Notes: generated from the letters alone by a model not told the origin. Shown: positions 351 through 59,347, counted from the whole stretch's first letter. The stretch: DNA of 63,507 bases, filler included, from Reclinomonas americana ATCC 50394 (GCA_048213135.1; 7 parts of 4 records of this genome joined end to end with filler, not necessarily neighbours in it); one strand, 5' to 3'. Numbers and translations are program-made.

Positions 351-2075
351 CGGGCGTTCGTATGACGCAGTGGACTGAGTACACGACACGCGCGTTTGAG
401 CGGCTGGAGGACGTGTTGAATCTGACGGGCATGTCGCGGAAGACGCTGCGGGCAATGCAGGCGAGGGCGCTGGTGCCGGGAGTGGATGATATGCGGGGGC
501 ATCCGTTGCGTGTCACAGAGAAGTGGAAGGGGGGATGTGGAGAAGAAAAGGACAAGGGAGGAAGAGGAAGAGAGGGAAAAGGATGAGGATGTGGAGGGCG
601 AGGAAGAGGGAGAAGGAAATGGAAAAGGAGGAGGAAGGAGGAGGAGCCTCATCCAGTCTCTCTCTGTCTCTCTCAGTCTCCCTTTCTCTCTCTCTGTCAG
701 TCTCTCTCGGTCTCTGCCAGTCTCTTTCAGTCTCTCACTGTCTCTACCAGTCTCTCTCTGTCTCCGCAAGTCTCTCTTAGTCTCTGTCAGTCTCTCTGTC
801 AGTCTCTCTCAATCTATCTCTCTCTGTCAGTCTCTCTGTCAGTCTCTCTCAATCTATCTCTGTCTCTCTCAGTCTCCGCCTGTCTCTCCCAGTTACTCTC
901 AGTCTCCGCCAGTCTCTCTCAAACTATCTCTCTCTATCAGTCTCTGTCTCGGTCTCTCTCTCCGCCAGTCTCTCCCAGTCACTCTCAGTCTCCCTCCGTC
1001 TCTCTCAATGAGGAGCACAGGCAGGAAACCGTGTCATTTGCTCTGTTCATCTGCCTTCACTGACATTTCCATCTCCTGTCTCCTCCGTTCATATAATTGC
1101 TCATCTCTGTTTTTTGCTTGCACTTCTCTTATCTCACTCTCTCCTTCCCAATGCCAGTGGCGGCTACACATTCGCGGTCCCCTTTGTGCGCACCGCTTCC
1201 TACATTCCGGTGCGCCACCCCTCGACCCTCTTTCACCTCCCCTTCCCCCCGTCTTACTCCCCCTTGCCCCTCATATCAGTACCTGGTGGACCGCTTCCTG
1301 GCCGCTGGCGGCCGCCTAGACATTCTCGACGCACCTCTCGAGTCGCTGGCGCAGGTGGCGGCACCCGGACGTCTTCTCGTAAACTGCGGCGGTCTGTTGG
1401 CTCCGCAGTTGATTCCCAACCCGGAGGAGCGATTGCTGGAGATGCGGAGGATGCACCCGCTGCGTGGCCAGTTGGTGATGGTGTCGCAGCCGCCGGATGC
1501 GTTCTTTGATTGCCGAGGCGATACGAGAGAAGTGCGTGGATGAGGAAGTTTGTCTCGCTCTTGCACTCATTTCCACGTACAGGTCGATATGGCTTACATT
1601 CTACCGCGCAACGACAAGGAGATCGCATTGGGAGGTACGTGCATGCGCGACTGTTGGGACACCGAGGTCGACCACAGCACCACAAGAAAGTTACGCACTT
1701 GATTACAGAGCGGAACTCCCTCGTGATCTCACTATCTCGTGCAGAATCATCGAGCGGTGTGTCGCTCTGGAGCCGCGCTTGGAGGGATGCGAGAAACGCA
1801 TTCTTGATGTGAAAGTGGGACTGCGGCCGTCGCGTGACGTGGGAGTGCGACTGGAGCGCAGCGTGTATGACGCGCTGCCGCCCGACTGTCATGTCATTCA
1901 CTGGTGAGAAGAATGCTTTTGTGAGTGCGTGTGGGTGATGGTGAGCTGACCAGCTGCGCGTCACAGTTATGGACACGGTGGAGCTGGGTGGACGATGAGT
2001 GTGGGGTGCGCCGAGGAAGTTTTGAGAATGGCGATGGAGTTGGTCCGTGGCAAGAGACTTGTTGCGAAACTGTGA
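351..2075 (+). CDS. DAO: D-amino acid oxidase, 5'-partial, 6 visible exons, peroxisomal
   Basis: Spliced translation contains VNCGGL, HPLRGQLV, MAYILPR..IALGGT, VKVGLRPSR and VIHCYGHGGAGWTMSVGCAEEV. Ends AKL* (PTS1). GT-AG introns at 505, 1210, 1532, 1690 and ~1904 restore the frame. Confidence 0.92.
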
Positions 2076-2318
2076 GGCAAGTGAACGAGGTGCGGTGGAG
2101 TATGTGCTTTGTTGGACAGCTGGCGTGTGGCGTATTATTGCATCGGCGCATTCGGAAATGCATGCACTCCATGCGCTTCGCTTGCATATAGATCACCTAA
2201 TGCACTCGCTGTACAATGAGGCCAGAGCATGCAGGCATGAGAGTCGCTGACAGAAGAGAGAGCGACTTGTATAGTTCGTGGCCGGCGGTGACACAGTGGC
2301 GGACAACATTCAGAGGAG

Positions 2319-2760
2319 CTAGCTGTCACCAAGCAGTCGTCGAGCGGCTGTATTTATTGCATTCTTTCGATACGCCACCGCGCGCAAGCACCACCTCCTC
2401 CTCACCTCCTCCCTCACTTTCTCCACCTCTGCAAAAACAACATGCGCCGCGCATACGCTCCGCCCCCGCGCCGGATTGTGCAATCCCGCCCGCTTGTTCA
2501 CCCGCACCTGGAGACGTTTATCAAAGTCGGCGCCGCTGGCGCGGCAGCAGCTGCGACGCAGCAGCAGCAGGCGCAACAGCAGCAGCATCACCGCTGAGAG
2601 CGTGGAAGCGCCTGTGCCAATGTCTGCAAGCTTCGGAGCTGCATGAGCTCGAGAGGCAATAAACGTCATGATCGCTATTGTAACCATGCACCTCATCGAC
2701 TCCTTTACTGACCACGAGGCAACAAGAGTGAGCTGTGGTGTGTGCTGCTGGATCACCAAA
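2319..2760 (-). CDS. Possible small spliced gene of unknown function
   Basis: Non-repetitive stretch with open frames (KGVDEVHGYNSDHDVYC...; GADFDKRLQVRV...LLGDS*) and plausible GT/AG sites; no recognisable motif. Confidence 0.2.
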
Positions 2761-56513: not shown

Positions 56514-57972
56514 ATGGGTGAGTTGTCTTTTTGCGCGCTTGCTGTTTTCCACCTTACCGCGCTCACTGTGCGCCTCGGCGATGCAGCGTCTTCTGTTGCC
56601 AAGACGGCGTCGAATGGAGACGCAAAGAAGGGTGAGGACAAACCGGCGGCGCCAGTGACTGGCTACGATGCCGCTGTGCAGTTTGCCATTGGTACCTTTG
56701 GAGGCATTGGCTTCTGGCGTGTGTTCCGGCCATTCGTGGAGTCACACACGCACGCGCACAGTCCAGTCATGGTACGTGTGTTCGAGAAGTACAAATGCAA
56801 CGGCGACGGCGGACGTGGTCACTCTGCTGTGTGTGTTGCTGCAGATGTTCCCGATTCTCAAGTGGCTGTTGCCCGCGATCTTCACCCCGCTCTACGTCAT
56901 CATGGTCTTCTATCACAAGCGGGTACGTATTCTGCAGCGGCGACAGCGGCGACCGCAGTTGTTCACGGATCGCAATCGCCGCAGGTTCGCATGCAGAAGA
57001 AGCCAGAGGATGCACCGGTGATCAACCCGGGTCTGTGGCTGGCCCGATGGAACCTCTTCCTCACCATTCTGTCGTACATTATGATGACGGGCCTCCTGGA
57101 GGGAATGGTGCGCGAATGTGGCGAACCGTTGAAGTGCAATTTGTCGGTGCTCACCGCGTCGCGCTTACACAGTACGACGGGTACATGAAGCAGCCGGAGC
57201 TCGGCGTGCTGACGTTCCTGTGCACCGACGAGTGGTGGGACAATGGCATGCTCATGTTCAACATCTGGCTGTTCACGTACTCCAAGGTGCGGAGCGCACG
57301 CACAGCTCTCTCACTCCCCTCTCCTCTGCTGCTCATGTCTGCCGTTGTTTTGTTTGCTTGTACACCGCAGTACATTGAGTTGATCGACACGGTGTTCCAT
57401 GTGCTGAAGCGCTCGGAGATCTCCTTCCTGCACTGGTACCACCACACCACCGTGCTGCTGTACACGTGGTACATGACCACGTTCCGCATGTCGCTCGGTT
57501 CCATTTTCGCCACGGTCAACAGTGCCGTGCACGGCATGGTGCGCACGTCACCGCATTGTGCGCTGTCTGCTTTTGTGCTCTGTTTTTGCTGAGGCGCCAC
57601 ACACGTGCACACAGATGTACGCATATTATTACCACTCGTCGGTCGGCCGCCGTCAGACATATGGCGTGTGGGTGACGCGGTTCCAGTTGACGCAAATGGG
57701 TGTCGGTCTGGTCTCTACTGCGGTGTGGGCCTACTACCACATCTCCGACAACAAGACGTGCCCGTCGCCCACGGATCTCGAGTGGCCGGTGACGCTCGGT
57801 GCCTCGGTGGCGCTGTACGGCTCCTACTTTGTGCTGTTTGCCCTGTGCGTACGCGTGTCCCCTATCCTCACGTTACGCACGTACTGACAATCTGCGCAGG
57901 TTTTACATTGATCGATGGATCAAGAACGCGAAGGAGGCCAGCGCCGCCAAGGCCAAGAGCAAGACAGCATAA
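56514..57972 (+). CDS. ELOVL: ELO/GNS1-SUR4 family fatty acid elongase, about 9 exons
   Basis: WNLFLTILS, FTYSK|YIELIDTVF, FLHWYHH histidine box, NSAVHGM|MYAYY, TRFQLTQM, LYGSYFVLFA; C-terminal KSKTA* (KxKxx ER retrieval). Confidence 0.95.
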
Positions 57973-58182
57973 GGCTGTACTCGGGTGCCCCAGATTTTAA
58001 CCCTCTATCCTTCCCATGTTTTTCCCCGTCGCCATTGTCCGTCACTTGCGCGTGCTTGCGCACGGCCACCTCCCAGTTGTGTGGCAAATCGTGTTGTGTG
58101 CGTGTGTGCGCGCGCGCCGGTGGCTGCGAGGCGACTTTCCTGGCTATTTGATTTGATGAATGAACGTTATCTGTAGAGGTGG

Positions 58183-59347
58183 TCACTCGCCGCTCGCGCT
58201 CTCCGCCAGCTCCGCCAAGATGGCCTCCACGTGATCGATGTCGTAGTACTCGTTGCCTGTGAGAGTGAGATGAGTCGAAGTATGTGCGCTCAGAAGAGGG
58301 AGGGTGCGTACCATACAGCGCGTCGACACGACAGACGCGAGTGGCGTCGGTTTTGAGGTACGCATACAGCTTCGCCACACTGCTGTCGCTAATGTCGGTC
58401 CGCTCCACGTTGAGGTAGGTCAGTGACGGTGGCAGGTTGCACGCCAGCAGATCCATGCCTCCATCTTGCACGCTGTTGCCTGTGTGTAGCTGGGAGATGA
58501 GTATCGAGAACGGAGACAGCACTGTCTTCTGCGGCCACATCACCATCCAAGAACAGTGTGGTGAGACGCGGCATGCTGCGGAACGTCCAGGCGGATACCA
58601 TCATGGCCGACGCATCAAAATTGTTGGCCCCGAAATCGAGCATGACAAGCGACGCACCGCAGTGCGTGACCAGGGAGGGCATCAGCGTGCAAAAGGCGCG
58701 CTCGGTTACAAAGTTGCCACGCAGCGACAGTCGCTCAAGATGGGGAGTGGTGGCGAGCACCGAGCGAAGCGCCACTGCGCCCTTGCCACCGATGCGGTTG
58801 TCTGTGCGCAACACAACAACCGCCATCAGATCTCACAATGCCGACGGACGCACGCATGCATGCATCGCACACGAAACATGAAAGGTCCAACTGCCGCAGC
58901 GAGCTCACACAGCCCTCCAGTGCCGTGCAGAGCGCCGGGAACTGCTGTGCGGTGAGCTGATTGCCTGCGCCTTTACCGTCAGCGATTGTCGCAGAAGCGA
59001 TGGCAGGAGTGCGAGGCACGCAACGGCTGAGATTGAGGTATGTGATGCTGGGCAGACGCTCCAGCACGCCAGGCAGTGACGACAGCATGGCAGCGTCGCG
59101 CAACTGCATGTGACTCAGATCGAGCGAGTGGAGCTTTTGCAGCGCCGACCGATCGCGACTCAGCACCCCCTGCACCGCGTGCAGCATCACACTGTTGTGC
59201 TGACATCGCAGCGACTGCACGTGCGGGAAGACGGCCACAATGTCGGCCAGCTCGGCGACCGAGAACGGAACATTCACCGACACTTGTCCAGGCATCACGG
59301 TGACACGCGACTCCAGTGTCACATGTCGCATGCAGTGTTCAATGGCG
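58183..59347 (-). CDS. RNI-like leucine-rich repeat protein, 5'-partial
   Basis: LHSLDLSHMQL, ITYLNLS|RNQL, LRQLDLS|YNRI, LERLSLRGNFV, LVMLDFGANNF, LTTLFLD|GNSV, LTYLNVERTDI. Confidence 0.85.

Follow-up and report, generated by a model that had tools for sequence, protein, structure and literature searches.

For animals and yeast, the usual view is that 5' splice sites are read in a single register. A shifted register was reportedly described for human sites by Roca and Krainer in 2009. As far as the relevant sections of PMC4856993 go, this shifted register and the +2/+3 bulge are two human modes that place the donor core one base further into the intron, and the validated noncanonical registers together account for 1.5% of 201,541 human sites, shifted sites being a small part of them. 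A GTGCGTG donor consensus has been reported, as an atypical one, for Ostreococcus lucimarinus outside chromosome 2 in the corresponding part of Irimia and Roy 2008 (PMC2483917). Here, we analyze GTTGCG(T) sites in a DNA stretch of 63,507 bases (the window, i.e., the whole stretch), which very probably constitute a real class of 5' splice sites. Our findings suggest that the splicing machinery of the source organism routinely reads the intron start signal from a shifted position otherwise known only from rare human cases.

We refer to GTTGCG(T) donors as class 2; the 25 sites considered are the 24 listed in a preliminary description of the window plus one at 62485 (-). Human shifted (+1) sites, as characterized in those sections of PMC4856993, share with class 2 a consensus lying one base further from GU and the lack of G at +5, as well as, presumably, a G+1 in the place of exon G-1 and cleavage at the GU. 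They differ in that the human core is UAAGU and rare, whereas that of class 2 is UGCGUG, with presumed pairing, and marks 16 to 24% of the introns placed in this one window. Human +2/+3 bulge sites also have one extra U between GU and the paired core, according to the same sections; they retain exon-end pairing, whereas class 2 is nearly devoid of G at -1. The canonical consensus of the window (G+3, C+4, G+5, T+6, G+7) equals that of O. lucimarinus, for which the pertinent part of PMC2483917 describes no GTTGCG class. The window departs from Ostreococcus, as portrayed there, in its branch-like motif, CTNAY (often CTCAC) instead of GACTGACG, and also in being intron-dense and encoding ARPC3, a UFD2-like protein, and fn3-rich proteins, so it probably belongs to a different lineage. 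Searches of full-text literature (few subscription journals, supplements outside their scope) retrieved no description of GTTGCG or shifted donors as a class in a nonhuman lineage, or as a major class anywhere.

Introns were placed with our own generalized hidden Markov model gene finder, which relies on a three-periodic codon model trained on its own output, allows no in-frame stops, and treats introns as GT...AG jumps of 40 to 700 nucleotides (nt) under a length penalty, on both strands and separately in each N-free segment. Three parses were obtained: no-matrix (82 introns), acceptor-only (97 introns, any GT as donor), and donor-matrix (119 introns). GTTGCG was the top donor hexamer of the no-matrix parse (10/82, followed by GTGCGT with 8, GTGGAG with 6, and GTGAGT with 5) and the commonest of the acceptor-only parse (16/97; GTGCGT, 9), in which 15 of the 16 sites had been listed before and the extra one is 62485 (-). 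Donor use in the latter parse reached 16 of 50 GTTGCG occurrences versus 81 of 6648 other GT sites (Fisher odds ratio 38, P = 3e-18). Independent frequencies at +3 to +6 of the 97 donors predict 0.94 GTTGCG donors against the 16 observed (Poisson P = 7e-15), so the motif is more frequent at donors than independent positional frequencies would make it. The donor-matrix parse returned 15 GTTGCG donors among its 119 introns, and at least one of the three parses picked 19 of the 24 listed sites, with 7900 backed by homology instead. Removal of class-2 introns joins reading frames in all three parses, and canonical donors (GTGAGT, GTAAGT, GTGCGT) coexist with class-2 donors within the same genes.

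Class 2 makes up 7 of the 43 introns on which both donor-agnostic parses agree exactly, 6 of the 25 on which all three parses do, and 16% of those in the acceptor-only parse. On this evidence, GTTGCG(T) very probably represents a discrete second donor class starting about one in six to one in four introns of the window. The motif itself occurs 50 times (26 on the plus and 24 on the minus strand) versus about 34 expected from base composition, and GTTGCGT 25 times versus about 8. Twenty of these 25 GTTGCGT are among the listed sites, and 62485 (-), absent from that list, is a 21st likely donor. The remaining four, at 40915, 36192, 15847, and 12316 (all minus strand), were not placed as donors; that at 40915 lies on the sense strand of a UFD2-like gene, within a 423-nt intron of the parses.

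The letters and strands given in the preliminary description proved accurate for all 24 sites, as did its tallies at -1 (A at 12 sites, C at 6, T at 5, and G at 1) and of T at +7 (20/24); the absence of G+5 follows from the motif itself, and the spread over nine genes is a lower bound (at least 9), our own models suggesting about 12. The ordinary GTGCG donors that it cited at 1210, 1532, 6715, and 28847 and its variants at 1690, 58877 (-), and 60073 (-) also read as described, of which only 6715 scores high by the local measure introduced below.

The composition of both donor types was compared using a canonical core set of 21 donors (GTGCG, GTGAG, GTAAG, or GTACG) among the 97 of the acceptor-only parse and the 25 class-2 sites, with the following result.

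Position -1: canonical, G in 15/21; class 2, G 1, A 13, C 6, and T 5 of 25.
Position +3: canonical, G in 19/21; class 2, T in 25/25 by definition.
Position +4: canonical, C in 15 and A in 6 of 21; class 2, G in 25/25 by definition.
Position +5: canonical, G in 21/21; class 2, C in 25/25 by definition.
Position +6: canonical, T in 15/21; class 2, G in 25/25 by definition.
Position +7: canonical, G in 12/21; class 2, T in 21/25.
Position +8: canonical, no clear preference (T in 7); class 2, G in 16/25.

Class 2 is the canonical G/GTGCGTG signal with its core TGCGTG one base further in (H/GT-TGCGTG, the slash marking the exon end) and with the exon-end G preference gone. The alignment of A/GTTGCGT to AG/GTGCGT displaced by one base, put forward in the preliminary description, holds at +7 to +9, i.e., at positions outside the class definition, where the log-likelihood of class 2 under the canonical matrix is -78.1 when shifted and -133.2 when unshifted, the background giving -105.5. 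At -1, G is largely lost (1/25 versus 15/21, P = 1.4e-6), and the class-2 -1 base has a log-likelihood of -33.0 when read as canonical -2, -53.7 when read as canonical -1, and -36.1 for background. The canonical consensus, with C preferred over A at +4, can be seen throughout the window, for example at 6715, 24579, 38647 (-), 39344 (-), and 40693 (-). Other T+3 donors of the form GTTTG(C/T), often preceded by exon AG, recur in the parses at 8849, 31485, and 53427 (+) and at 40378, 61564, and 61733 (-); these may be a third donor flavor or parser errors.

A local donor-agnostic score, combining flank coding, a penalty for coding-like interiors, an acceptor matrix, and a length penalty, was computed for 6645 usable GT sites. 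GTTGCG ranked as the top hexamer, with 15 of 50 occurrences reaching the 95th percentile and 6 the 99th; 15 of the 24 listed sites lay at or above the 90th. This last threshold was reached by 14/25 GTTGCGT versus 4/25 GTTGCG followed by A, C, or G, even though +7 is intronic and barely enters the score. The word GTRCGT was not enriched among high scores (15/146 versus 14.6 expected) because it is common in repeats, and GTNTGCGT with any base at +3 was at expectation (3/29 versus 2.9). Within the 17 kb that Pfam or homology allowed us to orient, GTTGCGT occurs seven times in sense and never in antisense (P = 0.016), and GTTGCG overall 10 times in sense and 4 in antisense. The class-2 sites and the introns predicted from them are as follows, with percentiles referring to the local score.

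505..511, plus strand: GTTGCGT donor closing a protein-like open reading frame (ORF) of 52 amino acids (aa); the no-matrix parse gives a tentative 653-nt intron; long GA/CT-rich stretch after it.
5067..5138, plus strand: 72-nt intron of an M3 peptidase gene, GTTGCGC; score against homologues 229 versus 205 (same donor, other acceptor) and 189 (other donor); no-matrix and acceptor-only parses; in-frame TGA inside.
5316..5385, plus strand: 70-nt M3 intron, GTTGCGT; homologues 123 versus 110 for 5321; donor-matrix and acceptor-only parses.
7900..7995, plus strand: 96-nt M3 intron, GTTGCGC; homologues 261 versus 229 for the GT at 7918, which all three parses picked.
12722..12728, plus strand: GTTGCGC donor candidate closing a 187-aa ORF; CTT repeat and N run after it; acceptor not placed; not scorable locally.
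25012..25076, plus strand: 65-nt intron; all three parses; 100th percentile.
25284..25887, plus strand: donor of a tentative 604-nt intron; donor-matrix and acceptor-only parses; closes a 113-aa ORF; acceptor uncertain.
25952..26009, plus strand: 58-nt intron; donor-matrix parse; acceptor-only parse kept this acceptor but started from the GT at 25964.
26095..26101, plus strand: GTTGCGA donor candidate at an ORF end; CT repeat and N run after it.
28160..28226, plus strand: 67-nt intron, the sole one with G at -1; donor-matrix and acceptor-only parses; 93rd percentile.
31161..31167, plus strand: GTTGCGT donor with uncertain acceptor, its two placements being at odds; no-matrix parse, the others picking 31157; closes a 321-aa ORF, GA-rich after it.
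32394..32400, plus strand: GTTGCGT donor; no-matrix and acceptor-only parses with different acceptors; closes a 146-aa fn3-like ORF.
33340..33408, plus strand: 69-nt intron; all three parses.
34579..34646, plus strand: 68-nt intron; all three parses; 100th percentile; another GTTGCG 8 nt upstream at 34571.
34882..34950, plus strand: 69-nt intron; donor-matrix parse; 99.7th percentile; the other two parses kept this acceptor but started from the GT at 34894.
51461..51525, plus strand: 65-nt intron of an ankyrin/coiled-coil/kinase gene; donor-matrix and acceptor-only parses; 95.6th percentile.
40412..40475, minus strand: 64-nt intron of the UFD2-like gene; donor-matrix parse; acceptor-only parse with the same donor and another acceptor.
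42633..42762, minus strand: 130-nt intron of the UFD2-like gene; donor-matrix and acceptor-only parses.
46941..46999, minus strand: 59-nt intron; all three parses; 99.2nd percentile.
48680..48686, minus strand: GTTGCGT donor candidate; GA-rich low-complexity sequence after it; acceptor not placed; 38th percentile.
54212..54270, minus strand: 59-nt intron; all three parses; 99.7th percentile.
55332..55338, minus strand: GTTGCGT donor with uncertain acceptor; acceptor-only parse, the other two picking the inner GT at 55333; 96.5th percentile.
55490..55566, minus strand: 77-nt intron; donor-matrix and acceptor-only parses; 97.4th percentile.
58802..59024, minus strand: 223-nt intron of a leucine-rich-repeat gene; 96.6th percentile with this acceptor; picked by no parse.
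62418..62485, minus strand: 68-nt intron, added to the earlier list; all three parses; 97.3rd percentile.

Homology bears on several of these junctions. In the M3 gene, all stop-free GT-AG combinations were scored against two homologues, P0001 and P0002 (41% and 36% identity), and each of the three GTTGCG introns came out as the top-scoring solution. Since the parsers had picked 7918, homology here corrected them in favor of 7900. Along the UFD2-like gene, the matches that 24 full-length homologues gave in tblastn stop at 40479 to 40485 and at 42781, positions lying just upstream of donors 40475 and 42762. Removing 59024 to 58802 preserves, in our reading, the spacing of about 28 residues of leucine-rich repeats. 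Sites 505, 12722, 25284, 26095, 31161, 32394, and 48686 score low; by eye, a protein-like ORF ends at each of them and GA-, CT-, or CTT-rich sequence or an N run follows, so that their acceptors are not placeable. The switch from protein-like ORF to low-complexity sequence is sharp at 505, 12722, 26095, 31161, and 48686.

A first flank-only coding score did not discriminate GTTGCG sites, nor did a test of co-occurrence with branch and acceptor motifs (10 versus 7 for GTTGCG), and plain k-mer enrichment for donor signals in the window was swamped by microsatellites. Pfam searches with 14 small exons beside class-2 donors gave weak leucine-rich-repeat matches only, with no junction-spanning domain. 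Single-exon word-index searches for close proteins that might span junctions returned two matches of at most 41% identity in one case and none in the other, and the Atlas supplied no match of use. An exhaustive protein search with a UFD2 exon yielded 106 matches of 28 to 51% identity, none near enough to come from the same species, and the 80 metagenome loci matching an M3 exon were all at 44% identity or less, leaving no close relative in that set for comparing intron positions.

Class-2 introns otherwise look ordinary. In a set of 16 of no more than 140 nt (12 from the acceptor-only parse and 4 added by hand from the donor-matrix parse and the homologue scoring), lengths range from 58 to 130 nt, compared with 55 to 132 nt for 14 canonical introns. 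All 16 end in AG, mostly as CAG with TAG at 33408 and GAG at 62418, and 13 have CTNAY 11 to 25 nt from the 3' end, a spacing similar to that of canonical introns. Class-2 introns thus show the GT and AG ends, branch-like stretch, and frame restoration of U2-type GT-AG introns, frames being unresolvable at five sites. The donor of U12-type (minor) introns is a rigid RTATCCTT-like motif, and direct reading found nothing of this kind in any of the 24 contexts. Membership in an introner family was also rejected: mean normalized alignment scores were -0.150 within class 2, -0.160 within canonical introns, and -0.168 between the two, with a maximum of 0.10 (Mann-Whitney P = 0.49). The inner GT at +6 of GTTGCGTG was discarded as the true donor, with 5321 scoring below 5316 against homologues (110 versus 123); the parses picked such a GT at 5321 (no-matrix) and 55333 (no-matrix and donor-matrix) only. 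Tandem donor candidates occur as GTGAGT at 5063, 4 nt before the GTTGCG at 5067, as GTTAGT at 31157, 4 nt before 31161, and as the GTTGCG pair 34571/34579, 8 nt apart, all of them possible alternative or U1-docking sites.

The explanation that we favor, with a probability of about 0.5, is that class-2 sites are genuine donors read through a +1-shifted U1 register. The 5' terminus of the U1 snRNA (small nuclear RNA) would pair with the core in this register, so that the intron G+1 would occupy the place of the exon G-1, and -1 would become equivalent to the canonical -2. The catalytic spliceosome (U6, U5, Prp8) would later fix cleavage at the sole GU present, which lies one base upstream of the boundary defined by U1. 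This course of events has been shown for the rare human shifted-register sites. We consider it rather less probable, although far from remote, that shifted-register recognition is here a constitutive major mode serving about a fifth of introns, in which U1 binding and the cut are routinely uncoupled by one base and the U6 contact tolerates two spacings.

Several observations weigh against this explanation or its breadth. Taking the class-2 -1 base as the canonical -2 improves on background by just 3.1 log units, and the canonical -2 is not clearly A-rich (A in 7/21). Seven of 16 class-2 introns of the acceptor-only parse are in phase 2, and such a codon-position effect may explain part of the G loss at -1. 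When paired with the standard U1 5' end in the form given by PMC4856993, which may differ from the organism's own U1, class-2 sites are predicted to form weak duplexes (-5.9 to +0.5 kcal/mol), with 8 of 25 in the shifted, 2 in the canonical, and 15 in spurious registers; canonical donors adopt the canonical register in 20 of 21 cases (mean -6.4 kcal/mol). The C favored at canonical +4 (15/21) mismatches standard U1, so the reader of TGCGTG may not be standard U1. Scoring the UFD2 junction at 40475 against homologues failed to separate the candidates, which all reached about 53, and five sites (505, 12722, 26095, 31161, and 48686) have no single agreed acceptor. The gene finder is crude: only 45 introns are common to the 97 of the acceptor-only and the 119 of the donor-matrix parse, and the latter fused neighboring genes and took the wrong strand over an ELO gene. 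The class-2 frequency, estimated from one sample of 57 kb of readable sequence, may not hold genome-wide. A search of the window with Rfam yielded no snRNA gene among matches at gathering scores, of which there were 0; at E values up to 1, it returned 52 subthreshold matches to microRNA, small nucleolar RNA, and long noncoding RNA models, mostly in low-complexity repeats, and no snRNA.

Among other accounts of real donors, U1 could bind in its normal register with one U of +2/+3 bulged, G+1 facing its usual partner and GCGUG pairing canonically. Such a bulge explains the displaced +7/+8 signal equally well, and the register has been validated for a small human set (68 predicted, in the sections of PMC4856993 dealing with it). 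Because it retains exon-end pairing, it predicts the G at -1 that is seen in 1/25 class-2 against 15/21 canonical donors, and the minimum-energy duplex is bulged in none of the 25 sites; we therefore regard it as unlikely. The loss of G at -1 is our reason for preferring the shifted register, with which the excess of A at this position weakly agrees. The same loss speaks against normal-register reading by a U1 specific to the lineage, or by a second U1, with a 5' end that complements GUUGCGU, since this reader too would be expected to keep the G preference; in addition, the coexisting GTGAGT, GTAAGT, and GTGCGT donors fit standard U1 (20/21 in the canonical register). A variant U1, to which we give an equally low probability, would nonetheless accommodate both the canonical C at +4 (15/21), unpaired by standard U1, and the weakness of the duplexes with it. 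Humans carry variant U1 genes, and Irimia and Roy raised possible snRNA changes for the Ostreococcus GTGCGTG consensus (PMC2483917).

Less probable still is that TGCGTG is read without U1 pairing, by a protein or a later U6 contact tolerating two distances from GU. At its C, the core complements standard U1 poorly, and it is present, identical, at two spacings. However, only two spacings, one base apart, are enriched, with GTNTGCGT at 3/29 versus 2.9 expected, which fits a duplex of fixed geometry better than a loose enhancer, and we know of no candidate factor. An equally improbable artifact, in which many sites are unused and owe their appearance to motif-based selection and to a codon model ending exons before a poorly coding hexamer, could draw on the derivation of all evidence from models or homology, the two uninformative simpler tests (branch/acceptor co-occurrence and flank-only coding), and the five sites without an agreed acceptor, but it leaves unexplained that T+7/G+8, outside the selected hexamer and hardly affecting the score, separate high from low scorers, that the three M3 junctions are best by homology, that GTTGCGT occurs 7 times in sense and 0 in antisense, and that the 16 class-2 introns of up to 140 nt share canonical-like lengths (58 to 130 nt).

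The genomic context of these sites is that of a gene-dense, intron-rich eukaryote. N makes up 6,172 bases of the window in 26 runs, leaving about 57 kb readable with a guanine-plus-cytosine content of about 55%. Six blocks of the form N44-TTAATTAATTAA-N44 (20959 to 21058, 43822 to 43921, 55810 to 55909, 59527 to 59626, 60633 to 60732, and 61825 to 61924) are artificial six-frame-stop linkers between concatenated contigs; hence, gene models must not span them, and genes on either side need not be linked. Pfam searches with 288 stop-to-stop ORFs identified the following genes and domains.

About 4.9 to 8.2 kb, plus strand: M3 peptidase gene.
About 22 to 33.4 kb, plus strand: weak fn3 matches.
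36.4 to 42.9 kb, minus strand: UFD2-like ubiquitin ligase, extended by tblastn.
44.0 to 45.8 kb, plus strand: ARPC3.
49.9 to 53.8 kb, plus strand: ankyrin/coiled-coil/kinase gene.
56.6 to 57.9 kb, plus strand: ELO elongase.

According to our own gene models, the stretch from about 21.1 to 35.1 kb on the plus strand holds several genes whose products are rich in Thr/Ser/Ala and contain repeated fn3-like domains, the final one ending in a hydrophobic tail, and looks like a tandem family of surface proteins. Within the UFD2-like gene, a tandem duplication of about 150 nt is visible by eye at 40283 to 39990 (-), each copy having CTCAC...CAG acceptor-like ends and a short ORF. Long introns are packed with (GA)n, (CT)n, (CTT)n, and (GT)n microsatellites (e.g., 505 to 1150, 12750 to 13320, 31170 to 31300, and 48680 to 48200 on the minus strand), and TCTCTCT alone occurs 657 times with both strands pooled. 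These repeats give rise to spurious microRNA matches in Rfam.

A genome whose shifted class equals the canonical one in abundance would show that a spliceosome may have flexible registers as a normal, selected property. If class-2 donors are indeed read in a shifted register, the organism would lend itself to studying what determines where the intron is cut, and its genome would offer many natural substrates for studying how U1 binding, hand-over to U6, and cleavage-site choice are coupled. Any gene finder trained with just one donor matrix would put between a sixth and a quarter of its introns in the wrong place, as our own donor-matrix parse did at 7900, 31161, and 59024.

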